Positions 14,742 through 29,871 are shown, counted from the first letter of the stretch. The stretch: DNA of 64,000 nucleotides from Opitutales bacterium (GCA_050331815.1 JBHJGM010000016.1:65653-129652), one strand, 5' to 3'. Made by a program: numbers and translations. Notes: generated from the letters alone by a model not told the origin.

Positions 14742-15746
14742 ATGGGAGGGCATTCTTGGCAAGGGCGCGGTCACCGTGGGCCGCACTTCGGGTTGCTTGC
14801 GTTTGTCCTGCTGGCACTTGCTATAAGTAGCCAGGCAGCGATAGCTTCGCCCAGGCTTTCGCTCTACGAATCCGGCCAATACTTAGGCCTGCAGACGGCC
14901 TGGCTTGAACCCGGCAAAACCGCCCAACTCAAGAACCGCTGGGTCTCCCTGGTCTTCGAGCGCAACCAGCGCGCCTTCACCGTCGATGGCCTGCGTGTGC
15001 ACTTGGGCGATCCCGTCGGCGTTGCTTCCGGCCAGTTGACCATCACTCGCACCGATTACGCCCGGACGCTCCTGCCCTTGCTCAGCCCAAAGTCGCTCGG
15101 GCAAGCTCCGGCGCTGAAACACATCGTCATCGACCCGGGACACGGTGGCAAGGACGCCGGCGCCATCAACCGCTCCCTGGGCCTGTTCGAAAAGGAGCTC
15201 GTGCTGGAAGTTTCGCTGCGCTTGGCCAAGCTGCTGCGGGAGGCTGGTTATCAGGTCTCTCTGACCCGCTCCGACGACCGCTTTATCGACCTGCGCGAGC
15301 GCCCGGCCATCGCGAACCGCCTCGGGGCCGACCTCTTCATCAGCGTCCACGCCAACGCCTTCAGCAGCCCGAACGTGCGCGGCATTGAAACCTTTGCCTA
15401 CACGCCCCATGGCCAGCCTTCCACCGGACGGGCTAAGCTGCACAGCTCCGACCAACGCACCTACCCGGCCAACCGCTTCGACGCCTGGAATCTGCTGGCG
15501 GCCTTTTACCTGCAAAAAGGGCTGCTGCAGGGCCTCGGCGCACCCGATCGCGGGGTCAAACGAGCCCGTTTTACCGTGCTGCAGTCGTTGAACTGCCCCG
15601 GGGTCCTCGTCGAGTTGGGCTTCATCAGCAACCCGTCCGAAGGCGCGAAGCTCAAGACCAGCCAATACCGCGATCAAGCCGCCCGTTCCCTGGCGCGCGG
15701 GGTGCTCACCTATGCTACCACCCTTCAGCGCGTTGGCGCGCGCTAG
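14742..15746 (+). CDS. N-acetylmuramoyl-L-alanine amidase (Amidase_3)
   Basis: It has a signal peptide. The Amidase_3 motifs IVIDPGHGGKDAGA, ADLFISVHANA, GIETF and VLVELGFISNP are present. Confidence 0.9.
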   Translation: MGGHSWQGRGHRGPHFGLLAFVLLALAISSQAAIASPRLSLYESGQYLGLQTAWLEPGKTAQLKNRWVSLVFERNQRAFTVDGLRVHLGDPVGVASGQLTITRTDYARTLLPLLSPKSLGQAPALKHIVIDPGHGGKDAGAINRSLGLFEKELVLEVSLRLAKLLREAGYQVSLTRSDDRFIDLRERPAIANRLGADLFISVHANAFSSPNVRGIETFAYTPHGQPSTGRAKLHSSDQRTYPANRFDAWNLLAAFYLQKGLLQGLGAPDRGVKRARFTVLQSLNCPGVLVELGFISNPSEGAKLKTSQYRDQAARSLARGVLTYATTLQRVGAR

Positions 15747-15754
15747 GCGATTTC

Positions 15755-16159
15755 ATGGCCCAGTTCACAACCCTTCTGTGGGTCGGCCTTGGCGGTGCGG
15801 GCGGGGCGATGTTGCGGGCCTGGCTCGGCCTTACCTTCGCGCAGCCCGGGCATTTTCTGCCCTGGCCCACGCTCGTCGCCAATGTCCTGGGCTCGCTCAT
15901 CCTGGGCGGCGTGCTCGCCGTCGAAGCCCACAGCCGCAACCTGCTTCACCCGCACGCCCGAGATCTGCTCGCGATCGGTTTCTGTGGCGGCTTCACCACC
16001 TTTTCCACTTTCAGCTGGCAGACCCTCGACCTCTTGCGCGAAGGCAAGCACGCCGCCGCGCTGACCAACATCGCACTGAACCTGCTGCTGACGCTCGGGG
16101 CCGTCGCCCTGGGCTACTTTGCCGGAAGGTACTTGCTGAGCGCAACTTCCGGACGATAA
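15755..16159 (+). CDS. crcB: fluoride ion channel CrcB/FluC
   Basis: Four hydrophobic helices, plus GGAGGAMLR, TLVANVLGS and GFCGGFTTFSTF. Confidence 0.9.
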   Translation: MAQFTTLLWVGLGGAGGAMLRAWLGLTFAQPGHFLPWPTLVANVLGSLILGGVLAVEAHSRNLLHPHARDLLAIGFCGGFTTFSTFSWQTLDLLREGKHAAALTNIALNLLLTLGAVALGYFAGRYLLSATSGR

Positions 16160-16212
16160 CCCGGCTTTGGAACCGCCCGCCTTTCGCCCCGGTCAACACT
16201 GCGCACCCCGCC

Positions 16213-17874
16213 ATGCTTTTGCTGAAAAAAATCCTTCTTGGCTGCCTCGCCTTTGCTGCGTTGGCTATGCAAGGCCAGGCCCAGAGCAATGACTCCGGGC
16301 CCAATCCGGCCAACGTGGTCGTGGTGGCCAATCGCAATGTGCCGGCCTCCGTCGAAATCGCCCGCTACTACATGCAGCGTCGCGGCATCCCGGAGAAAAA
16401 CCTCCTCTTCGTTGAAGCCTCGGGAAGCGAGGAAATCATCTGGTCGGAGTTCACTGACACCCTCTTCAACCCCCTGCGGCAGCAACTGCTCGAAAAAGGC
16501 TGGATCGATGGCGTGCTCACCGGCGGCAAAGACGCCAACGGCATCCTCGAAGGCACCTTCGCCGGGCACAAAATCGATTTCCTGGTCACCGTCTACGGCG
16601 TGCCGGTCAAAACCACCGGCACCGAAGAACTCACCCAAGGCAGCGCCAACGATCCCGTCGCCCGCCTGGCCGCCGCCGTCGACAGCGAGTTGTGCCTGCT
16701 GCCCGTCGCCGACGCCCCGGCAAACCGCATCATCAGCAACAGCCTCTTCTCGCGCGAAGTTGTGATCGGCCAGGAACACCACGATCTGATGCGCGTTGCC
16801 CGCCTCGACGGACCCGACGTTAAATCGGTCAAGGCCCTTGTCGACAACGCACTGCTGGGTGAAAAATTTGGCCTGCGCGGACGCGCCTACATCGATTTTG
16901 GCGGACGCTACCAGCGCGGCGACACCTGGATGACCAACGCCGGCATCGCCACGGAGACCCTGGGCTTCGAAACCGTCTACGAGCCGACCAAGGGCAAACG
17001 CTTCCTGGCCAAGGACCGTTTCGACGCCGCCGCCATCTACTTTGGCTGGTACACGTTCAAGGCCGAAGGGCCCTTCCTCAGCCCCGATTTTCGCTTTCCT
17101 CCGGGCGCCGTGGCCGCACACCTGCACAGCTACTCGGGTTACACCGTTCGCCACAAAAGCGCCTGGTGGGTCGGCCCGATGATCAACCGCGGCGTCACCA
17201 TCACCTTTGGCAACGCCTACGAGCCCTCGCTCACGCTGGTCCACCGCTACGATCTGTTTCTGGAGGGCCTGGCCCAGGGCAAGACCGCCGGGGAAGCCGC
17301 CTACTTTGCCCTACCCGCCCTCGGCTGGCGGACCTTCATGATCGGCGATCCGCTGTACCGCCCCTTCGCTAAGACGCTCGATGCTCAGATCGCCGACGCC
17401 GTCACCCCGATGGCCCCTGGCGATGAAGATCGCGATCCCTGGCAGCCCTACGCGGTCATCCGGCAGATGTATCTGCACTCACGCGCAGGCGACAACGACG
17501 AAGCCATCAAACTCGGCCAGGCTTACCTCGACGCCCAAAAACCCAACCCGCTGCCGCTCGTACTGACCCTCAAGGACTTCCTCAAGGCCGAAGGACGCGT
17601 AACTGAGGCCATCGAACGCCTCGAAGCCTTTGCCCGCATCGAGCAATTTCCCGCCAGTCTTCATCCTGCCGCCATGGAGGCCGCCCGCTTCCTGAACGAA
17701 AACGGCAAGCCCGCCTCGGCGTTCGCCATTATGAAGGCTGTGATCGAGGACTCCCGGCTGACCGATGAGCGCGCCTTTGCTTGGCTGCCCGAGGCGATCA
17801 CCCTGGCCGAGCGCACCGGTGCCTCCGACACCGCCCGCACCTGGAAGGGCCGACAAAAATCCGGCACGCCTTAG
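16213..17874 (+). CDS. secreted TIGR03790-like protein with a helical-repeat C-terminal region, function unknown
   Basis: It has a signal peptide (MLLLKKILLGCLAFAALAMQGQA). VVVVANRNVPASVEIARYYMQRRGIPEKNL is the N-terminal signature I associate with the TIGR03790 family. The track's upstream 167 aa overlap crcB out of frame and were rejected. Confidence 0.6.
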   Translation: MLLLKKILLGCLAFAALAMQGQAQSNDSGPNPANVVVVANRNVPASVEIARYYMQRRGIPEKNLLFVEASGSEEIIWSEFTDTLFNPLRQQLLEKGWIDGVLTGGKDANGILEGTFAGHKIDFLVTVYGVPVKTTGTEELTQGSANDPVARLAAAVDSELCLLPVADAPANRIISNSLFSREVVIGQEHHDLMRVARLDGPDVKSVKALVDNALLGEKFGLRGRAYIDFGGRYQRGDTWMTNAGIATETLGFETVYEPTKGKRFLAKDRFDAAAIYFGWYTFKAEGPFLSPDFRFPPGAVAAHLHSYSGYTVRHKSAWWVGPMINRGVTITFGNAYEPSLTLVHRYDLFLEGLAQGKTAGEAAYFALPALGWRTFMIGDPLYRPFAKTLDAQIADAVTPMAPGDEDRDPWQPYAVIRQMYLHSRAGDNDEAIKLGQAYLDAQKPNPLPLVLTLKDFLKAEGRVTEAIERLEAFARIEQFPASLHPAAMEAARFLNENGKPASAFAIMKAVIEDSRLTDERAFAWLPEAITLAERTGASDTARTWKGRQKSGTP

Positions 17875-17933: not shown

Positions 17934-18512
17934 CTAGACCGACTCAACAATGCGGTCAGCCAGGCCGTAATCAATGGACTGCTGCGCGTTCATGTAGAAG
18001 TCGCGGTCGGTATCTTTTTCGATCTTTTCAAGCGGCTGACCCGATGCCTCCGCCAGGATCTTATTCATCTCCGCGCGAGTTTTTTCCATCTCCTCGGCCT
18101 GAATGTTGATATCCACCGCCGGCGCAACGATGCGGCCCATGATCAGCGGCTGGTGAATCAGTACCCGCGCGTGCGGATAAATCAGCCGGCGGCCTTTCTC
18201 AGGCGCTGACAACAAAATCGACCCCATGCTCGCGGCAAGCCCGGTCACGACCACTGTCACCGGCGAGGTGATCAGTTTCATCGTGTCGTAGACGGCCATC
18301 CCGGCCGTAACTGAACCACCAGGGCTGTTCAGGTAAAAGGTGATGTCCTTGCCCGGTGCGTCTAACTCCAGATACAGCAGCTTTTCGGTGACATCCTTGG
18401 CCGACTCATCGTTGACCTCGCCCCACATGAAAATCTTCCGCTCTTCCAAAAAGCGCTTCTGCATCAGCATCGAAACGCCCCGGCTCTCCTCTTTTTTCTC
18501 GTTCTCCGGCAT
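17934..18512 (-). CDS. clpP: ATP-dependent Clp protease proteolytic subunit
   Basis: Motifs YLNSPGGSVTAG, GLAASMGS and IHQP are present. The start is set at MPENEKK (ATG 18512..18510). Confidence 0.95.
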   Translation of the reverse strand: MPENEKKEESRGVSMLMQKRFLEERKIFMWGEVNDESAKDVTEKLLYLELDAPGKDITFYLNSPGGSVTAGMAVYDTMKLITSPVTVVVTGLAASMGSILLSAPEKGRRLIYPHARVLIHQPLIMGRIVAPAVDINIQAEEMEKTRAEMNKILAEASGQPLEKIEKDTDRDFYMNAQQSIDYGLADRIVESV

Positions 18513-18601
18513 AGCTTGATTGGGTTTAAGACGGGGAACGGAGCACACTCGCCGCCCTAAAGCAACCCCGCAATCGGACCGGCCCGCGGCGCTTATAAGC
18601 C

Positions 18602-20035
18602 CTACTTCTCCAACAGGATGAAGAGCACGTTATCGGTAAAGGCGGGGTCCTTCGTCATGCCCAGGTGGTCGCTGAAGAGAAAGGTCACCGCGTGCCAATC
18701 CACCGGCGAAACCAACCGCACCTGGTCGGCGTTGGCGCGGTCCAAACGCTCGTCCGCCAGCGCGCTCGAACGCAACACTGTGCCATCGCCAGCGGCTTCC
18801 AACACCTCGACCAGCGCACCGGTCTCGCGCTCCAGCACGGCCACTGCCGGAGTGGACGCCGCATCCCCGGCTACCAGGTAAATCGAAGTGCCCTCGGGCG
18901 GGCGGGCCGGTGTGTCCAGCGCCGCATGAAAGGCCTCCGCCTGGGCCAGGCATTTCGCCAGATGCTCCCGGGCGATCGCACGTCGCTGCGATGCGGCGTA
19001 GACGTCCGGCAAAAGGTCCTCCAGCGGTGCCTTCGCCGCCGCATCGGTTAGGCCCCAACTAAAACGCTCCCACGTCGCCACGTCATACAGGCCACGCACG
19101 CCCACTTGCGAGCCCGCCCACTGCCAGGCCCGGTGCCGCTCCCGGGGCAGCAGCTGGTAAATCGATGGAAAGGTCCCCAGCGAAGCCGCCGGATAATTCG
19201 GCAGAGGCCCCGGATAGTCTTTCCCGGTCAGTAACTCCTCAAAGGCCTGTATCGAGCCCGCGCTGGGCGTCCCTACGAGGATCAGGTTATCCACCCGCTG
19301 GGCTCCCGCCCAGTTCAGTGCGGGCGGCGCGGCGGGGTCGAGCCTCTGATCGCCGTAGCGCAAATAATACCTGGCGACCAGCCCACCCATCGAATGCGCT
19401 ACGATGTCGAACTTTACCGGCCCTTCGTACCCGTACCGGCGCTTGCGCTCGGCGGCAACGTAGGCGGCCTTCTCCTCAATAAAGGCCGAGAGCTTGGCCG
19501 CGTTCTCGGCATTATCGCGCCGCCAGTCGTAGGCAAACTGGAAACTGGTAAAATGCGCGTCACCGTAATCGACGCCGCGGCTGCCTTCCGTCTCATCGCG
19601 GTAGCCACCCACCCCCAGCGACATCAGCACATCCCGATACGCCCGCAGACGCACGGGCAGCCCCAGAAAGCGCACCTCCACGTCGTCCAGCGGGCCGTCC
19701 GCCACCACCGAATCGGTCAGCGCGCTCAGCGGCTGGCCCTGTTCCATCGGCAGCGAAAACGTCCGCAGCCCATCGGCCTCCCGCGGGTTGGCAAATTTCG
19801 AATCGAAAGACCCCCAGACCCGCTGCCCGGTCTGCGCGTCCACCAGCCGCGAGCCGAGAATCCCCGGAATCACGATCACCGGATTGCGCAGATCCTCCCC
19901 GCGCTGGGCCACGTCGCTATAAATTTCGTCGAGATTGGGCCCGGGTCGCGGCGCAGTGTTGGAGGTGCAGCCGCCCAAAATCGCGGTAAGGGCACAAACG
20001 GGTGCAAGAAGTCGAAGTCGGGGCAGGCACAACAT
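18602..20035 (-). CDS. alpha/beta-hydrolase lipoprotein, LCAT/PGAP1-like lipase/acyltransferase
   Basis: It has a lipobox (LTAILGGCTS) and the nucleophile elbow IVAHSMGGLVARYY. The overall architecture is LCAT-like. The start is set at MLCLPRL (ATG 20035..20033). Confidence 0.7.
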   Translation of the reverse strand: MLCLPRLRLLAPVCALTAILGGCTSNTAPRPGPNLDEIYSDVAQRGEDLRNPVIVIPGILGSRLVDAQTGQRVWGSFDSKFANPREADGLRTFSLPMEQGQPLSALTDSVVADGPLDDVEVRFLGLPVRLRAYRDVLMSLGVGGYRDETEGSRGVDYGDAHFTSFQFAYDWRRDNAENAAKLSAFIEEKAAYVAAERKRRYGYEGPVKFDIVAHSMGGLVARYYLRYGDQRLDPAAPPALNWAGAQRVDNLILVGTPSAGSIQAFEELLTGKDYPGPLPNYPAASLGTFPSIYQLLPRERHRAWQWAGSQVGVRGLYDVATWERFSWGLTDAAAKAPLEDLLPDVYAASQRRAIAREHLAKCLAQAEAFHAALDTPARPPEGTSIYLVAGDAASTPAVAVLERETGALVEVLEAAGDGTVLRSSALADERLDRANADQVRLVSPVDWHAVTFLFSDHLGMTKDPAFTDNVLFILLEK

Positions 20036-20235
20036 GCATACAGAGTGCTTGCTCCACCGTATCAGGCGAGCCCCGAATCTTTCTTCCACCTACCCAGCCG
20101 CAGCGGCCACCTGCTTGTTGAATCCCTCGGAATTTTGGCCCCCTGGGTGCATGTTTTCTGACCAAGGCCCGGTCTGATTGCCTTTGACACCGGCGGCCCA
20201 TTGTCCGATTTTACTAGGCTTCCCAACATACATTT

Positions 20236-20310
20236 CGGGGCGTAGCGCAGCCTGGTTAGCGCACCTGCTTTGGGAGCAGGGGGTCGTGCGTTCGAATCGC
20301 ACCGCCCCGA
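20236..20310 (+). tRNA. tRNA-Pro (anticodon TGG)
   Basis: A hand-folded cloverleaf fits. The acceptor is CGGGGCG/CGCCCCG and the D arm is GCGC...GCGC. The anticodon arm is CCTGC-TTTGGGA-GCAGG and the T arm is GTGCG-TTCGAAT-CGCAC. The discriminator is A, and CCA is not encoded. Confidence 0.9.
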
Positions 20311-20459
20311 CTTTTTTCAAGTTCAAACGCGCGTTTCAATTCCCAAAACGCGTGCCGAATACACACTTGACCCTCTGAGGGTCGCCCACATCCTTAACAA
20401 AATTCTGACCGGCGACACGTCGCTCGCCGCGCTCACGCATCCGCCCTCTGCCTCCCGTT

Positions 20460-21728
20460 ATGAATTTTTGGAAGCTGTTGTTCGCGGCGCTCGCCCCGGT
20501 TTGTCTGTTCAGTTCGGTTCGTGCCGAAATGATCGAGCCCGGGCCGGCAGCCCCCTCAAATCCCGCCACGTCCGCCACCTCAAACGCTCAGCGTGGGGTC
20601 AAGGTCGCCGCCATCTTCGTTAAGAATCGCGGCGAGGACAGCCTCGACACCCTGCTGCCTTCCTTTGAGGACCAGCTCGTTACCGAGCTGACCAACCGCG
20701 GACTGCGCATCATCAGCTCCGAGGACACCACCCGTGCGGTGCGCTCCTTCCTCGGCAGCCAGAACGAGGGTGGTCTCACCGCCGACCCGCTCGATGCCCT
20801 GCTCGAAAACAGCACCTCGGCCACCCGGCTTGCCCAGAACCTCGGCGCGGACTTTCTCGTCATGGGCTCGTTGCTATCGACCGGGGTGCAGGTCCAGCAG
20901 ATCAACCGGCCCGATCTCGGCATCAACCGCTCGGTCTCCGACCACCAACTGCGCGCCAGCTACAAGATTCTCAGCGCGGTCAACGGCGAAAGCCTGGCCG
21001 CCGGTACCGTCCTCGCCTCCAAGCGCTCGCAGCAGTCCGGGTCCTTGCAAAATTCCAGCCCGCTTCTGGAGGATCTCATCGCCGACGCCGCCGTGAAAAT
21101 CGGCCAGAACATCCAGGCCAAGGGCGGGGCGAACATTCTGCCCGCACCCGCCACGCTGCCGGGCGATGTTGGCTTCACCGTCGTTTGCAGCGTGCAGGAC
21201 ATGACCGTCCCGGAGGTCACCCGTGACGACGATGGCAATTTCATCCTGACCGCCAATCGCTACAAACTCGAGCCTCTCGCCGTGGTTGTAGAGCTCAATG
21301 GCGTGGTCATCGGCTCGGCGCCCGGTCGTTTCACCGCTGCTCCCGGGCTCCATCGGCTGCGCCTGACCCGCGAGGGCTTCGAAACCTGGGAACGCACCAT
21401 CAACATCCGCGAAGGCCTCACCCTGAACGTGGCCATGACGCTCAACCCACAGGGCCGCCAGTACTGGATGGAGATGGCCGAGTTTTTTGCCAACCTTAAG
21501 CAGAACGAGCAGATGGCCGAAGCACAGGCCGAACAGGTCAAGGCCATCGCCCAGATGATGCGCCAAAGCGGCCTGCGCATCGACCGCCGTTCCGACGTCA
21601 ACATCAACACCACCGAAGCGCCGGGCGTCATCAACGAAGGTGGCATCACCGGTGCCACCGACAACGACGTCGTCTGGCCCATCACCAACGTCCTTTCCAA
21701 CACCGCGTCCGAAGCCGCCGCACCCTAA
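20460..21728 (+). CDS. secreted protein: CsgG/LpoB-like N-terminal module + PEGA domain + coiled-coil tail
   Basis: It has a signal peptide. LVTELTNRGLRIISSED...LGADFLVMGSLLS is CsgG/LpoB-like. The PEGA-like block is VVVELNGVVIGSAPGRFTAAPGLHRLRLTREGFETWERTINIREG. Confidence 0.75.
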   Translation: MNFWKLLFAALAPVCLFSSVRAEMIEPGPAAPSNPATSATSNAQRGVKVAAIFVKNRGEDSLDTLLPSFEDQLVTELTNRGLRIISSEDTTRAVRSFLGSQNEGGLTADPLDALLENSTSATRLAQNLGADFLVMGSLLSTGVQVQQINRPDLGINRSVSDHQLRASYKILSAVNGESLAAGTVLASKRSQQSGSLQNSSPLLEDLIADAAVKIGQNIQAKGGANILPAPATLPGDVGFTVVCSVQDMTVPEVTRDDDGNFILTANRYKLEPLAVVVELNGVVIGSAPGRFTAAPGLHRLRLTREGFETWERTINIREGLTLNVAMTLNPQGRQYWMEMAEFFANLKQNEQMAEAQAEQVKAIAQMMRQSGLRIDRRSDVNINTTEAPGVINEGGITGATDNDVVWPITNVLSNTASEAAAP

Positions 21729-21756
21729 CCGCCTCCAGCCTTTCCAGTTTCCCGTC

Positions 21757-22659
21757 ATGAAAACTGCCCGGATACTCTCAGCCCTTTCCATTCTGCTCGC
21801 CGGAGCCGTCACGCTGCCGGCCCAAAGCGGCTTGCTCTCGATCGGCATTCAGGAGGTCGAGGTCGTCGACTCCGTGATGGTGGCCACCACCGCCGCCGGT
21901 GCCGACAAGGCCATTTCCCTGCAGCGCGTGGCCGACTCGATGGGCCAGCAGCTGATCGACCGCGTGCACAACACCCGCAAGTTCAAGGTCGTCTCCCGCA
22001 GCGACCTCGAGACCATGCTCAAGGAGCAGGAACTGCAACAGGTCTTTGCCGATCCGACCGACACTCAGGTCGCCCAGGCCTTCAAAATGGCCGGCTGCAA
22101 ATACGCCCTGATCACCACCATCGACGACTTTCAGGACATCCAGCAGCAGCTGCGTGCCGAAGGCGGCCAGGTCCTCGCCACCAAGCGCATCGTGCGACTT
22201 TCCGCCGTCGCCAAGATTTACGACACCACGGACTTCACCCTGCTGGAAACCGCCAACTTTCAGATGACCAACAAGGACGCCGAGGAGGCGCAGTTTGGAG
22301 TCATTGGTGACGGCGACGACAGCGACGCGCTGCTCACCATCATGGCCCGCGAAATGTCTTACAAGGCGGCCAACCGCGTGCTCGACGTCATCTTCCCGGC
22401 CAAGGTTATCGCCATGACCGGCAGCGTAGTCACCATCAACCGCGGTGACGGCACCGGCATCCAAGAAGGCCAGGTCTGGAATGTCTATGCGCTCGGCGAA
22501 GCCCTCATCGACCCCGACACCGGCGAGAGCCTCGGTGCCGAGGAAGTGCTGATGGGCAAGGTCGAGGTCATCGGCGTGACCCCAAAGTTCGCGCGTGCCA
22601 AAGTTCTCGAAGACTACGGCGTCGACAAGCTCCAGGTCCTTCGCCTGGCCGATTCCTGA
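21757..22659 (+). CDS. secreted CsgG/LpoB-like protein with a FlgT_C-like beta domain
   Basis: It has a signal peptide and no lipobox. MGQQLIDRVHNTRKFKVVSRSDLETMLKEQELQ...AGCKYALITTIDDF fits the CsgG-family pattern. The C-terminal GSVVTINRGDGTGIQEGQVWNVY is beta-barrel-like. Confidence 0.7.
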   Translation: MKTARILSALSILLAGAVTLPAQSGLLSIGIQEVEVVDSVMVATTAAGADKAISLQRVADSMGQQLIDRVHNTRKFKVVSRSDLETMLKEQELQQVFADPTDTQVAQAFKMAGCKYALITTIDDFQDIQQQLRAEGGQVLATKRIVRLSAVAKIYDTTDFTLLETANFQMTNKDAEEAQFGVIGDGDDSDALLTIMAREMSYKAANRVLDVIFPAKVIAMTGSVVTINRGDGTGIQEGQVWNVYALGEALIDPDTGESLGAEEVLMGKVEVIGVTPKFARAKVLEDYGVDKLQVLRLADS

Positions 22660-22735
22660 GACCGAAACGGTAACCAACTCTTTCGTTCGAACCGTCCAGT
22701 TTGCTGCCTGCTTTCCGTCCTACGTCTGAACTTCC

Positions 22736-24244
22736 ATGAAGCCGCCTGCCCGCTCTGCTTCGTTTCTCGCCTCCAGCCAACGCATACTTCGCGTTGGGCT
22801 GCCGCTGTTGCTGCTGGGCCTCGTTGCCGGTTGTCAGCACAACGCCTCCCTGCTGGAAGCTCAAGAGGCTTACCGAGCCGGTGACATCGCTCTGGCCAAA
22901 ACCAGCATCCAGGGCTACGTCCAGGACGACGGCGATGGCCGCGACCGCCTTATCGCGCACCTCGAGGAAGGCTCGATCCTGCGCACCGCCGGCGACATCG
23001 AGCTGTCCAATGCCGCCTTCGAACTGGCCGACCAGTACGTCGAAGAGTTCGACCAGATGGCCAGCGTCTCCGTCACCAAAGAAGGCACCGCCCTCTTCAC
23101 CAACCTCAACTTCCTGCCTTACCGGGGGATGCACTACGACCGCATCATGCTCAGCATGTACCGGGCGATGAACTTCCTTTCCCTGGGCGACGCCGACTCC
23201 GCCCGCGTGGAGCTGTTCCGTGTTTACGACCGCCAGCAAATCGCCGTCGAGGCCAACGCCAAGCGCATCGCCAAAGCACAGGAAGAGCTCGAAGACGCCA
23301 ACCAACAGAAAACATCCAACGAGCGCTACGATGTCGATCGCGCCCGCCAGGACCCCGGCTTCCAGTCCGGCCTGGATTCAGCCTACAACAACCTCGAGCA
23401 GTTCAACGCCTACGAGGCCTACGTAAATCCCTACGCGGAATTCTTTCAGGCGCTCTATTTTATGGCCAACCCGGCTGACGCCAACGACCTCGAGCGTGGG
23501 CGCGTCTCCATGGAGCGGGTCAACGGTATGGTGCCCGAAAACGCCTACCTCGCCGAGGACCTCGACTTGGCCACCCAGCGCGCGCGCGGCGCACCGATGC
23601 CGAACCTGACCTACGTCATCTTCGAGACCGGCGTGGCCCCGCACCGTGAAACCATCCGCATCGATATCCCGCTCTTTCTGGTCAACAACGAAGTCGATTA
23701 CGTCGGCGCTGCCTTTCCCAGGCTGGAAACGCACGACGGCTTTGCTCGCAGCATGCGCGTCGTCGCCGAGGGCGAACCCTACGACACCTCCATTCTGGCC
23801 GATATCGATACCATTGTCATTCAGGAGTTTAAGAACGAGCTGCCGCTCATCATCACCAAGACGCTGATCGCCAGCGGCACCAAGGCGCTCGCCGCCTACG
23901 TGGCCAAGGAAGCCGTCAAGGACCAGGACCCCTGGGTGCAACTGGCCACGCGGATCGCAACCACCACCTATCAAGTTTCGCAAAACCAGGCCGACTTGCG
24001 CACCTGGGCCACGCTGCCCAAGCAGGTTCAGTACGCACGCTTGCCGACGCCGGCTGGCGGTCTCATCCTGGTCTCAACTCCCGGAACCCCGCAGCCCGAG
24101 CCCGTGTCCGTAAATCCCGAAGGCGTCAACGTCGTGCTCGTACGCAGCGTCCATACTTACGCTCCGCTGCAAATCTACACTTTTAACCTCGTACCAGGCG
24201 CACAATGGCAAACAACCGCATCGTACTCTCCATCGGCACGCTGA
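22736..24244 (+). CDS. COG3014-like lipoprotein, function unknown
   Basis: It has a lipobox (LLGLVAGCQ). GRDRLIAHLEEGSILRTAGDIELSNAAFELAD and YRGMHYDRIMLSMYRAMNFLSLGDADSARVELFR match my recollection of the COG3014 family pattern. Confidence 0.6.
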   Translation: MKPPARSASFLASSQRILRVGLPLLLLGLVAGCQHNASLLEAQEAYRAGDIALAKTSIQGYVQDDGDGRDRLIAHLEEGSILRTAGDIELSNAAFELADQYVEEFDQMASVSVTKEGTALFTNLNFLPYRGMHYDRIMLSMYRAMNFLSLGDADSARVELFRVYDRQQIAVEANAKRIAKAQEELEDANQQKTSNERYDVDRARQDPGFQSGLDSAYNNLEQFNAYEAYVNPYAEFFQALYFMANPADANDLERGRVSMERVNGMVPENAYLAEDLDLATQRARGAPMPNLTYVIFETGVAPHRETIRIDIPLFLVNNEVDYVGAAFPRLETHDGFARSMRVVAEGEPYDTSILADIDTIVIQEFKNELPLIITKTLIASGTKALAAYVAKEAVKDQDPWVQLATRIATTTYQVSQNQADLRTWATLPKQVQYARLPTPAGGLILVSTPGTPQPEPVSVNPEGVNVVLVRSVHTYAPLQIYTFNLVPGAQWQTTASYSPSAR

Positions 24245-24639
24245 GCTTCGCGCTCGCGCTGTTTTCGGGCTGCAAAAGCCAGACCGTGAACACCACCGAC
24301 CCGGCTTTCTCCAACGCCAACCCGACCAACGTCACCATCGACCAGGTCGAGACCGACAGTTCGCTGAGCAACAAGGCCGGCATCCTGGGCGTGCGTGAAT
24401 CGCGCACCCCGGGCGGCTTGCTGCGCATTCAGGCCGAGATCTTCAACTCGACCAACAAGCGCCAGGAGGTGAACTACCGCGTGGACTGGTTCGACCAAGA
24501 CGGCATCGTCATCGACTCGCCCATGTCCAGCTGGAAGCGCATCTCGCTCGCCGGCAAGGACACCCAGCCGATCACCGCCACGGCCCCCTCGCCCAACGCC
24601 GCCGACTTCCGCATCAAGCTCGTCGAGCCCGGCTCCTAA
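24205..24639 (+). CDS. ycfL: YcfL (DUF1425) family lipoprotein
   Basis: It has a lipobox (LALFSGCKS). GGLLRIQAEIFNSTNKRQEVNYRVDWFDQDGIVI...APSPNAADFRIKL fits the YcfL pattern. It overlaps the upstream gene by 40 nt. Confidence 0.7.
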   Translation: MANNRIVLSIGTLSFALALFSGCKSQTVNTTDPAFSNANPTNVTIDQVETDSSLSNKAGILGVRESRTPGGLLRIQAEIFNSTNKRQEVNYRVDWFDQDGIVIDSPMSSWKRISLAGKDTQPITATAPSPNAADFRIKLVEPGS

Positions 24640-24681
24640 CACACACACCTTTACCGACCAACGCCCACGCACGCACGAACC

Positions 24682-25308
24682 ATGAAGACACAATACGCTT
24701 GCCGAATCCTTCTGGCCTCGCTTTTTGCCGGTGGCCTCTTCGCCCTGAGTGGCTGCACCAGCTCCGAAGGCGCCCGCCGCATCGAATCCGGTGGCACCGA
24801 GTCCATCACCACCGTCAACCAGCTCGACACCAAGGACGCCGTGGACGCCGCCGCCAAGATGTCCGAGTCGCTGCTCAATTCGGGCGTACTCGGCACCCAG
24901 GGCCGGCCCTCCTACATCGCCATTTCCAATTACGTTAACAACACCGGCATCCACCTGGACCGCGATCTGGTCGTCAAGCAGATCCGCGTGAGCCTCAACA
25001 AGGCCGGGGTGGCCCAGACCATCACGACCATCGGTGCTGCCGGCACCGCCGCCAATTCCGAGGATACCCTCGCCACCAATCGCGCCCAGATCAACGACTT
25101 CCTCAACGAGGGCAGCGGCCAGACCACCGTCAAGCCGGAGTACTCGCTGACCTACAAGGCCCTTCGTCAAAGCGCCCGCGCCGGCAACGTCAGCGAAAAC
25201 ACCTTCATCTTCCAGATGTCGCTGACCGAAATCGCCACCGGGCTCGCCGTCTGGGAAGACCAGACCATGATCACCAAGCAGGGCAAGAAGCCCTCGGTCG
25301 GCTGGTAA
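24682..25308 (+). CDS. lpoB: LpoB / LPP20 (COG3417) family lipoprotein
   Basis: It has a lipobox (LFALSGCTS). DTKDAVDAAAKMSESLLNSG...PSYIAISNYVNNTGIHLDRDLVVKQIRVSLNKAG fits the LpoB-family pattern. Confidence 0.7.
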   Translation: MKTQYACRILLASLFAGGLFALSGCTSSEGARRIESGGTESITTVNQLDTKDAVDAAAKMSESLLNSGVLGTQGRPSYIAISNYVNNTGIHLDRDLVVKQIRVSLNKAGVAQTITTIGAAGTAANSEDTLATNRAQINDFLNEGSGQTTVKPEYSLTYKALRQSARAGNVSENTFIFQMSLTEIATGLAVWEDQTMITKQGKKPSVGW

Positions 25309-25336
25309 ACTTACGTACCTAAGTTTTTAATACACC

Positions 25337-25371
25337 ACGCCTCCGGCCTGCCGCCGGGGGCGTTTTTGTTT
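25337..25371 (+). terminator. intrinsic terminator closing the five-gene operon
   Basis: GC-rich hairpin CGCCTCCGG-CCTGC-CGCCGGGGGCG followed by TTTTTGTTT. Confidence 0.65.
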
Positions 25372-25533: not shown

Positions 25534-25905
25534 TTATTCCTCCAGCCGGTGCGCTTCAAGGGCTGTCTGATCGACAAACTCAATGGCCGCCTCCGCCGTA
25601 GCTTCAAGAATTACCGGCGGCGCGACACCCGCCTCGTAAGCCTCCTGCCAGCGTTGCGCACAGAGGCACCAGCGGTCGCCCGGCATCAGCCCCGGAAAGT
25701 GATACTCCGGACGCGGCGTGCTCAAATCGTTGCCGCGGCCTTGGGAAAATTCCAGAAACTCAGCCGTCACCTGCGCGCAGACCACGTGCACGCCGAGATC
25801 ATCACGCCCGGTCCGGCAGCAGCCATCGCGAAAAAAGCCCGTCATCGGGTCGGTGGAACAAGGCACCAGCCCAGTGCCCAAAACGTTGCGTCCGCTTGTC
25901 GCCAT
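25534..25905 (-). CDS. DUF2237 family protein
   Basis: GTGLVPCSTDPMTGFFRDGCCRTG...HVVCAQVTAEFLEFS...PGDRWCLCAQRW is the typical DUF2237 pattern. The start is set at MATSGRN (ATG 25905..25903). Confidence 0.8.
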   Translation of the reverse strand: MATSGRNVLGTGLVPCSTDPMTGFFRDGCCRTGRDDLGVHVVCAQVTAEFLEFSQGRGNDLSTPRPEYHFPGLMPGDRWCLCAQRWQEAYEAGVAPPVILEATAEAAIEFVDQTALEAHRLEE

Positions 25906-25987
25906 ACAGGCATCCTCGCCACCTTCGTGCCGGTGTCCAGCGCGCGGACTATTTTTGACAGACTCCCGCTTTCGGGCAGGTTGCTGC

Positions 25988-27022
25988 ATGACGCAATCCG
26001 CCGCCCAAGCGCCCGCCCGTCCCGAACTCGATGCCCAGCCCGCCGGCATGCTCGCCGGTCTTTTCATCGGCGACGCCCTGGCCATGCCGGTGCACTGGTA
26101 CTACGACCCCGAAGCCCTTCGCAAGGACTACGGAGAGGTGCGCGCATACCTGGCCCCGCGCAACCCACACCCCTTCAGCATTCTCTGGCGCTCCAGCTAC
26201 AAAGCGCCCAATCCGCGCGGCGAAATCCTGCATGACCAGGTACGCTACTGGGGCCAGCGCGACGTGCACTATCACCAGTTTCAAAAGGCCGGCGAAAACA
26301 CCCTCACCGCCAAGCTTTGTCGCCTGCTTTGGCAGAGCCTGCACGAGGACGGCGGCTGGAATCCGGATGCCTACCTCCAGCGCTACATCGCCTATTTGAC
26401 GACGCCGGGCACCCACAACGATACCTACCTCGAGGAATGCCACCGCGACTTTTTCGCCAACTACGCTCGCGGTGCTGAACCCCGCCAGTGTGCCACCGAG
26501 GAGAAACACATCGCCGGGCTCGCCGCGCTCTTCCCCATCCTCGCCCACGAAACCAGCGACCTTGCGTCCGCTCGCGCCCATGCCCTCGAACGCCTGGAGT
26601 TGACCCACCCGGGCCACCGCATGCGCTGGGCAGCCAACCTGATGCTCGACCTCTTTGATCGCGTGCACCAAGGCACCCACATTCAGGAGGCCGCAACTCA
26701 GCTGCTGCCCAGAGTTGCAAAAAGTGTCTCCGCCGACCAGTGGCAGCACCTGCTGAGTCAGAACACCACCGCCGTGCTCAACCGCGCCATCGGCACGGTC
26801 TGCTACGTGGAGCAAGCAGTGCCCGCCATACTGTACCTGCTCTGCAAGCATGGCGAAGATCCCGAACAGGCCCTTATTGAAAATACCCACGCAGGCGGCG
26901 ACAACGTGCACCGAGGCGCAGTGCTCGGCGCGCTGCTGGGGTACGCGCACGGCATCGATGCCTGGCCCCAGCGCTGGCGAGAGGGTCTGGTTGAAGGCCT
27001 ACCCTTTTCTACGCAAACTTAG
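25988..27022 (+). CDS. ADP-ribosylglycohydrolase family protein
   Basis: MLAGLFIGDALAMPVHWYY near the N-terminus and GGDNVHRGAVLGALLG near the C-terminus match the family. The start is set at MTQSAAQ (ATG 25988). Confidence 0.8.
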   Translation: MTQSAAQAPARPELDAQPAGMLAGLFIGDALAMPVHWYYDPEALRKDYGEVRAYLAPRNPHPFSILWRSSYKAPNPRGEILHDQVRYWGQRDVHYHQFQKAGENTLTAKLCRLLWQSLHEDGGWNPDAYLQRYIAYLTTPGTHNDTYLEECHRDFFANYARGAEPRQCATEEKHIAGLAALFPILAHETSDLASARAHALERLELTHPGHRMRWAANLMLDLFDRVHQGTHIQEAATQLLPRVAKSVSADQWQHLLSQNTTAVLNRAIGTVCYVEQAVPAILYLLCKHGEDPEQALIENTHAGGDNVHRGAVLGALLGYAHGIDAWPQRWREGLVEGLPFSTQT

Positions 27023-27045: not shown

Positions 27046-29871
27046 TTATCCACGCAGCACCACGTACAGGGCGTCCTCCGGCAGCGTCAGCTTCATCCAG
27101 TCTCCCTCGGCTTTCACGAAGTCCGCTTCACCGCGCGGCAGGCCATTAGCATCCAAAACGACTGCTTCCTTCAGGCCGGCGTTGCGTATCCACAAAACCC
27201 CTTCAGCCCGGCGAATCATCCAGGGAGTCTCGCCAGTCTCCATAATGCGCTGAGCCGCCATCGGCTTGCCCTCGATCTTCAAGTTAATCTTCTCGGTCTT
27301 CCACCCGTTAGGCTCCTGATACGTGCCGATCTGAACCAGCACCTTTTTCGAAGCCTTCAGCGGCTGCTCGTCAAGCGCAACGGTCGTGATGGCCGCGTAT
27401 TCATTTTTCACGGACAGCTTCACGTCGCCCAAGTCAATGCCCTCGGCTTTGCCCAGGTAGCCGCTGGCCGCCTGCACGCGCGGCGATTTGATCAGGTACA
27501 GCCCACGCTCGTGGTGTATCTCCACCTCGCCGGTCGAACTGCGCACCATCGCCTTTTCGTGGTCGATGTGCTCGCGATAGCTCTCGTCGATTTCGGTCTC
27601 GGAGGGGTCCGCCCCGTACTCGACGAGGACCGGTCCCACTAGAAAGGCCAGCGGATCGATCGGCGACTCCAGCTTCAAGTCCGGCGCCATCAGCCCCTGG
27701 TCCCGATTCGGGTCAAAGGAAGCGCTTTCGGCCGTCAGGGGCAGGGTCTCATCCCAGATGTTTTCCAGGCTGCGTCGCTCCACGATCACCGGGTCGGCTT
27801 CCTGCAGCATTCCGGTACGGTAGAGCAGGGCCGACGCCGGGAATTGTCCCAGTTGCATCGGCGTCGCGAAGGTCCACTTGGTCAGGCTGCTGTTGCGCCC
27901 GCCCTGCACGGCGGGAATCCACTCGGGCTTGCCGGTGGCGAACCAGAAAAACGCATCCACCCCGTTGACCGACTGCTGCGAGGCTACCACCAGCGGGCCC
28001 TCGCTTTCGTAGCGATTCGGCGGCACCCACAAGCTCTCCGGAATGATGAACGGGTGCCCCCAGGTTTGACGCGCGTTGGTCGGAAACTCCCGCGGGCTGA
28101 GCGCACCCAGCTTGTTGGTGTAAATATGGTCAGGTAGAATCTGCCAGCCGCGCGTACGGCCGGTATGCAGCGCACCAAAGTAGTGGTTCTTCCCGCTGAC
28201 CTCATTGGCCGTGTAGCTCCAGCGCTCGGCGTCGCTCACCAAAACCGGGTCTACTGTTTTCCAGTTGCCGGCGTTGATCAACTGCGGCGCGCCGAGATCC
28301 TCACGCAAAAAGCGCGCGATCTCCGTATTGAAGTTGTACATCGTGCGCGCGAAAAATTCGAGCTGGTCGGCCCGTCGCTTGAGAAAACCAGCGTTGTCGC
28401 CCTTCGACTCCACGCCGCCCTGCGAAAACTCCCACACCAGCATGATGGCTGGTAGACCGTCTTTCCAGTCCTCGCCGCGGAAGTCGTAACGATAGCCGTG
28501 CCAGGCCTCCTTGGTCTTCTCAATCGAGCCGTACTTCTCGATCAGCCAGTCGCGAAACTGCTGCTTCAAAAGTACCTCTGCCTCGCCCCGCACATTCTGA
28601 AAGGTGAAGAAGAGCATGCTGTCCTCGTTCTGCAGCTGAATGACCGCCACCGCTGGCTCGTCCTTCAGAGGAACGCCCGTGTACGGATTCGGACGCGTGT
28701 ACAACGCCCGCAGGTAGCCCTTGTACGCCTCCTGAACTTCCGGCACAAAGAAGACCAGCCCGGCCAGGTTGCCGTTCACCGGGTTGGGAATCTCCCAATT
28801 GGCTTCCCGGCGCGTATGCGATCCCCAGTAAGGCGAGAGGATGGTGTAAATCCCGGCTTCCTTCATCCCCGCCACCAGCTTGAACGCCTCGTCCAGCTCC
28901 TTTTCGTCGACGTCATTCAGTTCAACGGTTTTTCCGTCACGGCGTTCCCGGCGTGAAACCTGAGGTGCCAGATCGCCATGCCAGCGTATCACGTTGACGC
29001 CGCGCTTCGCCAAAAACTCCGCGTGGCGCTTCATCTCGTCGATGGACAGGCTGCGCTGATTGTAATTTGTACCCGCCCAAAACCGCAGCGGCTGCCCGTC
29101 GGCGCGGACAAAGCTGTGGCCATCCTCGCTCAACCGCACGAAGCCGCTCTGGCCGGCCACGTCCTCGTTGAGGTAGCGCAAATCGAGCAGCGACTCCTCT
29201 GAGAGCGGGTCCGTACTCGGCTCAAAGGGCCACATCTTGGACGCATCCTGGGTGATGACATTCGGGTTCGTCTCGCCCGGTCGGTACTGCCCGTTGGGCT
29301 CAAAACCTTCCGTGGTCAGCACGAAGCAATCGATCGCTGCGTGTGGCTTTTCGTTCTCCGGGTCGCCTAGCAAAAAGGTTAACGTGTGCGTGCCGGCATC
29401 CAGATCGTGAGAGCCAAACTTCAGCCAGGCGTAATGCTTGCCGCCGGTACCGCCGTCGAGGGCCAGGTTGCGCTCATCGCGAAAACGCCGCACATACCCC
29501 TCGGTGCGGCGATTGCGGTTGTCCTCCCCGCGCAGTGCCCGCGGCTTGATAACACCGGCTTCCTCCCCGTTGACCGCGTAAGTAAAACCGTTGCCGGCCC
29601 CGCGGACCCACAACGTATACGAACCGCTCTCGGGGATCTCGACCGAGTAAGTCACTCGACCCATCGCCTGGTCCGGCTCCTTGAAGCTCGCGACCTTGGC
29701 ACCTCCCGACAGGCCGTCTTTACGCACGGCTTCCCACCACGCGTTGGAGGTGGTCTCCGCCGAGTCATGGGCCTCGCCTTCGATCCAGAGAAAAGCGCCA
29801 AGACTGGCCGGAGCTAGACCTGCAAGGCAGGCCAACGTTACAGAACAAGAGAGAAGCGTGCGTGGTTTCAT
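27046..29871 (-). CDS. secreted glycoside hydrolase, clan GH-A-like TIM barrel with an N-terminal beta-sandwich module (family not assigned)
   Basis: It has a signal peptide. The N-terminal region is CBM-like (WIEGEAHDS...YTLWVRG). The catalytic-type blocks are RGVNVIRWHG and VIQLQNEDSMLFF, which carries the NE motif. Confidence 0.7.
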   Translation of the reverse strand: MKPRTLLSCSVTLACLAGLAPASLGAFLWIEGEAHDSAETTSNAWWEAVRKDGLSGGAKVASFKEPDQAMGRVTYSVEIPESGSYTLWVRGAGNGFTYAVNGEEAGVIKPRALRGEDNRNRRTEGYVRRFRDERNLALDGGTGGKHYAWLKFGSHDLDAGTHTLTFLLGDPENEKPHAAIDCFVLTTEGFEPNGQYRPGETNPNVITQDASKMWPFEPSTDPLSEESLLDLRYLNEDVAGQSGFVRLSEDGHSFVRADGQPLRFWAGTNYNQRSLSIDEMKRHAEFLAKRGVNVIRWHGDLAPQVSRRERRDGKTVELNDVDEKELDEAFKLVAGMKEAGIYTILSPYWGSHTRREANWEIPNPVNGNLAGLVFFVPEVQEAYKGYLRALYTRPNPYTGVPLKDEPAVAVIQLQNEDSMLFFTFQNVRGEAEVLLKQQFRDWLIEKYGSIEKTKEAWHGYRYDFRGEDWKDGLPAIMLVWEFSQGGVESKGDNAGFLKRRADQLEFFARTMYNFNTEIARFLREDLGAPQLINAGNWKTVDPVLVSDAERWSYTANEVSGKNHYFGALHTGRTRGWQILPDHIYTNKLGALSPREFPTNARQTWGHPFIIPESLWVPPNRYESEGPLVVASQQSVNGVDAFFWFATGKPEWIPAVQGGRNSSLTKWTFATPMQLGQFPASALLYRTGMLQEADPVIVERRSLENIWDETLPLTAESASFDPNRDQGLMAPDLKLESPIDPLAFLVGPVLVEYGADPSETEIDESYREHIDHEKAMVRSSTGEVEIHHERGLYLIKSPRVQAASGYLGKAEGIDLGDVKLSVKNEYAAITTVALDEQPLKASKKVLVQIGTYQEPNGWKTEKINLKIEGKPMAAQRIMETGETPWMIRRAEGVLWIRNAGLKEAVVLDANGLPRGEADFVKAEGDWMKLTLPEDALYVVLRG

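Follow-up and report, generated by a model that had tools for sequence, protein, structure and literature searches.

A conserved five-gene operon joining two FlgT-like secreted proteins to a COG3014-YcfL-LpoB lipoprotein trio may encode a periplasmic scaffold

A 64,000-nucleotide (nt) stretch of DNA from an Opitutales bacterium (GCA_050331815.1, JBHJGM010000016.1:65653-129652), hereafter the window, carries at positions 20,460 to 25,371 five co-directional genes, here called g1 to g5, which encode two secreted FlgT-like proteins followed by three lipoproteins of the COG3014, YcfL and LpoB families. By sequence comparison, these genes form a predicted operon that is conserved across Planctomycetota, Verrucomicrobiota and Kiritimatiellota far beyond chance. 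We interpret the five products as a lipoprotein-tethered periplasmic scaffold at the interface between outer membrane and peptidoglycan, which would help to link the synthesis or remodelling of the wall, and the integrity of the envelope, to the outer membrane. We give this reading an even chance as a whole; its part on composition and complex formation is much firmer than its part on the cell wall. The operon had been singled out, and an outer-membrane-anchored scaffold suggested, in an original prediction that a model made from the window sequence alone. The system proves to be peculiar neither to this genome nor to Verrucomicrobiota: it spans three phyla and has a proteobacterial variant.

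One genome per species was scanned with a profile of the g2 family, which matched at least 273 species, and the best 80 of these loci, together with three others, made up a set of 83 that was searched with the five window proteins. The best 80 comprise 36 loci from Verrucomicrobiota, 30 from Planctomycetota (including the anammox Brocadiaceae and Kuenenia), 3 from Kiritimatiellota and 1 from Methylomirabilota, with 10 unlabelled or dubiously labelled. All five families are collinear in 66 of the 83 loci, 47 of them in the order g1-g2-g3-g4-g5 and 19 as a fused g2=g1 gene followed by g3-g4-g5; most of the other 17 loci are cut by contig ends. All-against-all clustering across the 83 loci recovered only these five families as conserved, with varying flanks. 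As no other family is conserved around the cluster, the five genes appear to travel as an autonomous module. The gene-neighbourhood comparison that had been proposed with the original prediction thus finds the five genes together in related genomes, and the proposed profile hidden Markov model searches returned significant matches. Some taxonomic labels of the metagenome-assembled genomes (MAGs) look wrong (L061, L030, L038, L083), and verrucomicrobial-type clusters stand under the labels 'Bifidobacteriaceae' and 'Enterobacteriaceae'; the 'Akkermansia muciniphila' label of L061 cannot be relied on, since the proteins of that locus group with freshwater MAGs of Pedosphaera and Opitutia. The cluster was also considered as an Akkermansia mucin utilisation locus (MUL) and rejected as such: MUL1 is described as Sus-like and MUL2 as type IV pilus-like (amuc_1099-1102), and both are unrelated to it.

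Gene fusions also tie the components together. A search of a library of 1.84 billion representative proteins with the g2 profile returned 4140 proteins at E <= 1e-3 and 310 at E <= 1e-30, and the top 146 representatives include 22 complete g2-g1 fusions, 7 g2-g2 and 3 g2-g2-g2 proteins. In many Planctomycetota g2=g1 is a single gene for a protein of ~705-780 amino acids (aa), in which g2 comes first and g1 follows without a signal peptide of its own, the reverse of the order in Verrucomicrobiota, where g1 and g2 are separate genes. The g3 relative P0090 is a fusion of COG3014 with DUF1425, the family of g4. Such 'Rosetta-stone' fusions are the strongest available evidence on physical association; at the level of sequence, they argue for a direct g1-g2 contact, a side-by-side packing of g2 protomers and a joint action of g3 and g4. 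The g2=g1 and tandem g2 fusions strengthen the idea of an outer-membrane-anchored scaffold.

The layout of the operon in the window fits this picture (Table 1). The intergenic gaps from g1 to g5 are 28, 76, -40 and 42 nt, the start of g4 overlapping the end of g3 by 40 nt; the five open reading frames (ORFs), their coordinates and their gaps between tRNA-Pro and a hairpin with T-run agree exactly with those first described. An ORF scan leaves the g2 frame open upstream to a GTG at 21640, and we take the start at 21757 as correct because the 300-aa product made from it is identical to NCBI protein P0121 (100% identity and coverage). GC content at the third codon position is 0.79-0.92 in the plus-strand genes, and the long minus-strand ORFs beneath them are regarded as shadows, since their codon-position pattern mirrors that of the genes. 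All five proteins carry the expected export signals: cleavable signals without a lipobox in g1 (…SSVRA/EM) and g2 (…LPAQS), and the three lipoboxes LVAGC (g3), LFSGC (g4) and LSGC (g5), whose cysteine is near-invariant among orthologues (74 of 74, 72 of 73 and 74 of 74, respectively). NCBI names the products, from g1 to g5, PEGA domain-containing, CsgG/HfaB family, COG3014 family, YcfL family and hypothetical protein.

At the downstream border, the hairpin at 25337-25363 is the strongest of 8 terminator-like sites in a 10-kb region for which chance predicts 8.8, so that its quality and position carry weight and the number of sites does not. The 72-nt terminator region has a folding energy of -23.9 kcal/mol (z = -1.8), and the hairpin with its trailing TTTTTGTTT is likely the 3' end of the operon. 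A sigma-70 promoter scan upstream of g1 gave no match. Between tRNA-Pro and the g1 start lies a perfect palindrome, GACCCTC-T-GAGGGTC (20369-20383), which shares bases with a TTGACC hexamer at 20367 and may serve the operon as operator or promoter element.

Table 1. Features of the operon and its borders (window positions), predicted domains of its products (aa), and fused or variant genes in other genomes
Feature	Position	Strand	Description
tRNA-Pro(tgg)	20236-20311	+	ARAGORN; upstream border, outside the conserved module
g1	20460-21728	+	422 aa, secreted
g2	21757-22659	+	300 aa, secreted, FlgT-like
g3	22736-24244	+	502-aa lipoprotein (Cys33), COG3014 family
g4	24205-24639	+	144-aa lipoprotein (Cys23), YcfL/DUF1425 family
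g5	24682-25308	+	208-aa lipoprotein (Cys25), Pfam LpoB family
Terminator-like hairpin	25337-25363	+	11 bp, 9 G-C, 5-nt loop; then TTTTTGTTT, to 25371
DUF2237 gene	25534-26085	opposite strand	next gene 3' of the operon
g1 signal peptide	aa 1-22		followed by low-complexity linker
g1 FlgT_M/TolB_N-like module	~aa 46-230
g1 PEGA beta-sandwich	aa 277-330		Pfam
g1 conserved helical segment	~aa 336-385		followed by variable tail
g2 signal peptide	aa 1-23
g2 TolB_N/FlgT_M-like alpha/beta module	~aa 26-212
g2 FlgT_C/TsaP-like beta-barrel	~aa 216-297
g3 TPR-like helical part	aa 37-283		TPR, tetratricopeptide repeat
g3 C-terminal beta domain	aa 291-484		with inserted helical hairpin
g5 linker			short (about 28 aa)
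g5 globular domain	aa 53-197
g2=g1 fusion			loci L043, L044, L047, L050, L053, L054, L056, L058 and 13 further; proteins include P0346, P0367, P0368
g2 double copy			~610-640 aa; P0337, P0348, P0351, P0357, P0363
g2 triple copy			~885-920 aa; P0456, P0479, P0481
DUF6844 gene, locus L085	7304-8650		proteobacterial version
DUF6844 gene, locus L087	5282-6982		proteobacterial version
DUF6844 gene, locus L088	5628-7001		proteobacterial version

The first two genes encode demonstrable paralogues, as judged from their shared N-terminal module: in a profile-profile comparison from which the fusion ORFs of L044 and L054 were excluded, g1 59-230 aligns with g2 52-216 at 96.3% hhalign probability (E 1.7e-9, 158 columns). 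The two peptide motifs first quoted for this module were found, one in g2 and one in g1. The g1 protein (NCBI entry MGF1485144.1, 'PEGA domain-containing protein') has a well-supported PEGA domain (PF08308; E 4.8e-10, 39.6 bits against a gathering threshold of 20.8), which recurs in 17 of 19 family members, and Pfam FlgT_M matches appear in three of the 19 (best 2.4e-5). Sequence conservation predicts a helical segment C-terminal to the PEGA domain.

Although g2 passes the Pfam threshold for CsgG (25 bits, cut-off 20.8), the match is confined to positions 34-101 of the 210 in the profile. CsgG is matched in all 16 g2 family members, FlgT_M in five and FlgT_C in four, the FlgT matches being faint. 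Structure points more clearly to FlgT. The AlphaFold2 model of g2 (pLDDT 77.8), compared with the PDB by Foldseek, matches FlgT best, both the isolated protein (3w1e, E 6.2e-15) and FlgT in the cryo-electron microscopy structure of the LPHT ring (8z5n, 1.1e-14), over 295 columns each; weaker matches, at ~1e-5 to 1e-3, are TolB, CsgG (1.7e-5), PelC, GNA1162, HpaA and CT253. A profile of the C-terminal domain matches the TsaP chain 6ve2_O (E 5.7e-6), with shared NRG..G and DP.TGE..G motifs, in agreement with the FlgT_C-like domain proposed at the outset. No conserved cysteine is present in the signal peptide across 16 aligned orthologues, which indicates that g2 is not lipidated, and the M-like module opens the mature protein at about residue 26, with no FlgT_N domain before it. 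We therefore consider a pore unlikely, given the partial CsgG match, the lack of a lipobox and FlgT as best structural match; modelling and sequence alike mark g2 as a probable soluble FlgT(M+C)-type protein, not a CsgG pore. The earlier label 'CsgG-like' is thus right as to the Pfam threshold and misleading as to the kind of protein. The fold of the g2 N-terminal module is also found in the hypothetical protein CT253 of Chlamydia trachomatis (PDB 6uxc; E 5e-5, target-normalised TM-score 0.57). The Chlamydiae fall within the same superphylum.

The lipoprotein trio begins with g3, which is 100% identical to an NCBI 'COG3014 family protein [Opitutales bacterium]', the source of its family label; it has no match in Pfam or NCBIfam. 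Its AlphaFold2 model (pLDDT 80.7, pTM 0.81) gave only weak tetratricopeptide-repeat (TPR) matches in the PDB (NlpI, BamD, PilF, all E >= 3e-3), and a PDB profile search found nothing, so the beta domain has no solved relative there. Its tentative assignment as a COG3014/Cj0089-type protein rests on the NCBI name, the TPR-like half of the model and homologues upstream of ycfL-lpoB in Azospirillum and Aeromonas. The family of g4 is clearer, with a Pfam DUF1425 match at E 9.3e-22, a BLASTP match to Escherichia coli YcfL at 2e-5, and PDB matches to 3o0l (E 1e-8) and to 4gio (E 0.007), listed as 'Putative lipoprotein', which we take to be the Cj0090 structure. For g5, Pfam LpoB (PF13036) aligns from position 2 to the end of its 147-position profile (E 2.4e-16), and the family profile recovers E. 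coli LpoB in the structures 2mii and 4q6z (E 2e-6), aligning query 44-193 with LpoB 59-197. The family assignments first made for PEGA, DUF1425 and LpoB hold in Pfam.

A third copy of the module shared by g1 and g2 had been proposed in g5. While the kinship of g1 and g2 stands, that of g5 is rejected at the level of sequence profiles, where hhalign gave 1.4% and 0.2%. Faint Pfam LpoB matches on g1, and overlapping LpoB and CsgG matches on proteobacterial g2 relatives, hint that g5 is related to the module at most at the superfamily level.

A parallel arrangement exists outside the three phyla. A tblastn search of plasmids with g3 led to an Azospirillum cluster (NZ_CP039640) annotated hypothetical-YcfL-LpoB-DUF6844-hypothetical, which ends in a gene clearly homologous to g2 (E 6.6e-25), with relatives mostly annotated as CsgG or TolB-like. 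An Endozoicomonadaceae genome and two further assemblies likewise carry COG3014-LpoB-DUF6844-FlgT-like clusters. Homology to the window proteins ranges from E 1e-87 to 1e-121 for g3, from ~1e-46 to 1e-52 for g5 and from 1e-23 to 1e-31 for g2. As in the window, homologues of g3, g5 and g2 are grouped and likewise uncharacterised, whereas the FlgT-like gene stands last and its product has an N-terminus ~100 aa longer than that of g2, DUF6844 replaces the PEGA paralogue, and YcfL is frequently missing. The DUF6844 protein has a homologue in the uncharacterised Francisella tularensis protein FTT_1539c (structure 4qvr, E 6.6e-19). Some proteobacterial versions adjoin glycosyltransferase or cellulase genes.

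The trio also occurs apart from FlgT-like genes, and the parallels first drawn with E. coli ycfL-lpoB and Campylobacter jejuni cj0089-cj0091 hold. In Aeromonas the order is COG3014-ycfL-lpoB-thiK, syntenic with hinT-ycfL-lpoB-thiK-nagZ of E. coli. From this synteny the E. coli pair is most simply read as a remnant of the trio, which would make bona fide LpoB part of an old module. LpoB itself is known as a gammaproteobacterial regulator of PBP1b, which the E. coli protein activates from the outer membrane. It is a lipoprotein like g5, and its globular domain is homologous to that of g5 along the whole length; the linker of g5 is shorter, and NCBI left g5 unnamed. The cj0089-90-91 operon of C. 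jejuni encodes three lipoproteins of 453, 122 and 207 aa (PMC3100323), compared with 502, 144 and 208 aa here, in consecutive genes of the same order: TPR-type, YcfL/DUF1425 and LpoB/COG3417, the Cj0089-g3 correspondence being by description. Neither the Campylobacter operon as described nor the E. coli locus has the two secreted FlgT-like paralogues, or their fusion, that precede the trio here. In Helicobacter pylori, the Cj0089 homologue HP0018 is a TPR lipoprotein whose loss causes hypervesiculation; it co-immunoprecipitates with MltD and AmiA, and in other Helicobacter species is linked to the LpoB homologue HP1457 (PMC11394524).

Ring-forming relatives supply the other half of the model. 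In the Vibrio H-ring, soluble FlgT is arranged as a C26 ring, and C58 rings of the lipoproteins FlgO and FlgP, through their lipidation, tether the H-ring to the outer membrane (bioRxiv 10.64898/2025.12.02.691832). No other structure matches g2 as well as FlgT, in both its M-like and C-like domains, and the logic would be alike: a soluble ring-former of TolB_N-like fold lies under the outer membrane and is held by lipoproteins, an arrangement that here is predicted from the genes. The differences are that g2 lacks the FlgT_N domain and that the lipoproteins belong to the COG3014, YcfL and LpoB families and not to FlgO and FlgP; no family of flagellar context (flgO/flgP, motX/motY) is conserved beside the cluster in the 83 loci. 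TsaP, the secretin-associated ring protein of type IV pili, has repeated FlgT_C-like domains homologous to the C-terminal beta domain of g2, which differs in lacking a LysM domain and a secretin gene near its cluster. The oligomeric outer-membrane lipoproteins CsgG, HfaB and PelC share a superfamily fold with the g2 N-terminal alpha/beta module, from which they differ in lipidation and, for CsgG, in the barrel-hairpin region, which the partial match leaves uncovered; partner genes of these systems, such as those of the csgE/csgF/csgA type, are not conserved in the 83 loci.

Taken together, we envision that the five genes, expressed as one operon, would give an assembly of several proteins in the periplasm and on the inner side of the outer membrane. 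In this model g1 and g2 would be the soluble part. They would bind each other and probably line up laterally in an oligomeric array or ring, much like FlgT in the H-ring of Vibrio or TsaP around secretins; the three lipoproteins would hold this array beneath the outer membrane. The role of adaptor would fall to the TPR lipoprotein g3, while the LpoB-like g5 would be a partner for enzymes of the cell wall. The trio would represent an old set of a COG3014 (TPR), a YcfL (Ig-like) and an LpoB-like protein, shared with Campylobacter, Aeromonas and Azospirillum, of which E. coli keeps ycfL-lpoB only. The complex is suggested by the tight spacing, the overlap of g3 and g4, the single strong terminator, the synteny, the fusions and the kinship to ring-formers, and further by the repeated pairing of FlgT-like proteins with COG3014/LpoB lipoproteins in lineages that are unrelated. 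Action on the peptidoglycan or on its coupling to the outer membrane is suggested by the LpoB homology, the synteny of the Aeromonas trio with E. coli ycfL-lpoB, the adaptor-like TPR lipoprotein, and the phenotype and partners of HP0018. The genes with their export signals, their families and folds, the close synteny and the fusions are observed; from them we infer complex formation, a ring-like geometry, an outer-membrane location of the lipoproteins and a peptidoglycan-related role.

Several observations weigh against this reading, most of them against its cell-wall part. None of the five proteins has a peptidoglycan-binding domain (LysM, OmpA_C) in Pfam. With the NCBIfam LpoB equivalog TIGR02722, g5 scores 62.4 bits, below the cut-off of 110.55, and a pairwise BLASTP search against E. 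coli LpoB gave no match. Where E. coli LpoB has E201, the g5 protein and its family consensus have Leu, and the residue at Y178 is not aromatic, both within a low-confidence stretch of the alignment and in an interface of a kind that co-evolves; in E. coli, LpoB E201R abolishes binding to PBP1b (PMC12279963). The ORFs scanned, which lie within the 64 kb of the window, include no penicillin-binding protein (PBP), such as the class A enzyme with a UB2H domain that would be the cognate partner of an LpoB. We regard g5 as an LpoB-family homologue, not a demonstrated LpoB, and its earlier label stands for the Pfam family and not for the equivalog. The described relatives are also a poor fit to a cell-wall role: Cj0089 is reported to be inner-membrane associated, and Cj0091 to be an outer-membrane adhesin needed for adherence (PMC3100323). 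A clean ycfL deletion in Klebsiella pneumoniae leaves the minimum inhibitory concentration unchanged; in transposon sequencing the ycfL signal tracks lpoB and mrcB (PMC13436387), which we regard as uninformative in view of the clean deletion and a possible polar effect. Finally, partial sets exist on intact contigs, with g1-g2-g4-g5 but no g3 in a Kiritimatiellia MAG (L006), and g1-g2 without the trio within 8 kb downstream in Opitutales/Puniceicoccaceae MAGs (L008, L055).

Other readings of the operon were weighed against the same evidence. The g1 and g2 proteins could form an accessory ring around a trans-envelope machine encoded elsewhere, for instance a type II secretion or type IV pilus-like secretin, with the lipoproteins as anchors, much as TsaP surrounds PilQ and FlgT the flagellar LP-ring. 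The TsaP match stems from the PilQ-TsaP complex 6ve2, FlgT (with FlgO and FlgP) rings another machine, and Verrucomicrobiota are reported to have type IV-like pilus loci including a secretion channel protein (PMC13174399). However, no secretin, pilus or flagellar gene is among the conserved neighbours of the cluster, g2 carries neither LysM nor FlgT_N, and the trio of E. coli, Aeromonas and Campylobacter has no link to such a machine; we consider this reading unlikely.

Less probable still is that g2, as its annotation as CsgG/HfaB would have it, is an outer-membrane channel that exports or anchors an amyloid, a holdfast-like adhesin or an exopolysaccharide, the other four proteins being accessory. 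The family-wide CsgG match, the fold shared with CsgG and the PelC dodecamer (E ~1e-5 to 1e-4) and the glycosyltransferase or cellulase genes beside some proteobacterial versions speak for such a channel, but the protein lacks a lipobox, its CsgG match leaves out the barrel-hairpin region, FlgT surpasses CsgG as structural match by ~9 orders of magnitude, and no gene for a substrate, a CsgE/F-like protein, a porin or a glycosyltransferase is conserved nearby. Similarly improbable is that five co-transcribed envelope proteins have separate jobs and form no common complex, with, for instance, an LpoB-like protein on a PBP and the others as adhesins or chaperones: although Cj0091 and Cj0089 differ in mutant behaviour and in fractionation (PMC3100323) and some genomes hold partial gene sets, near-invariant collinearity across three phyla amid changing flanks, the recurrent g2=g1 and g3-g4 fusions, and the recruitment, in Proteobacteria, of a FlgT-like gene to the side of the trio with another order of genes speak against it.

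Returning to the tethered scaffold, a broader version would make the trio and its FlgT-like partner an ancient ring or lattice complex of the diderm envelope, non-flagellar and anchored by lipoproteins. In Planctomycetota, Verrucomicrobiota and Kiritimatiellota this complex would serve as the main coupler of outer membrane and wall growth, and it would be the source of both enterobacterial LpoB, as a stripped-down remnant, and Vibrio FlgT, by exaptation. We offer this as a speculation that is rather unlikely to hold in full.

The surroundings of the operon in the window hold further genes. An N-acetylmuramoyl-L-alanine amidase gene (Amidase_3, E 5e-49) lies 4.7 kb upstream at 14742-15746 on the plus strand; it is suggestive in view of the interaction reported between HP0018 and AmiA, but related loci do not conserve it as a neighbour. 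On the minus strand, clpP (17934-18548) adjoins a gene for a 495-aa LCAT/PGAP1-like alpha/beta hydrolase with an 'ILGGC' lipobox-like N-terminal signal (18602-20089). Large ORFs at 15712-17874 (plus strand, 720 aa) and 27046-29871 (minus strand, 941 aa) gave no match in a Pfam scan, and a 1388-aa ORF at 30954-35120 on the minus strand has a marginal match to DPBB_PEX6 (E 7e-6).

The component families and the lipoprotein trio operon, functionally obscure as it is, are already known. What appears to be undescribed is the obligatory coupling of the trio to two FlgT-like paralogues, their fusions, and the existence of two lineage versions, one with the PEGA paralogue and one with DUF6844; our search of the accessible literature found no description of the five-gene system or of its proteobacterial variant. 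YcfL and COG3014 are widespread orphan families that occur also in the pathogens Campylobacter and Helicobacter. A trio locked to two often-fused FlgT-like proteins in three phyla, with a proteobacterial parallel, offers a concrete and testable picture of a scaffold. If true, this picture would give a role to several orphan families at once, would inform the envelope organisation of Planctomycetota, Verrucomicrobiota and their relatives, and would suggest origins for the flagellar H-ring protein FlgT and for LpoB.

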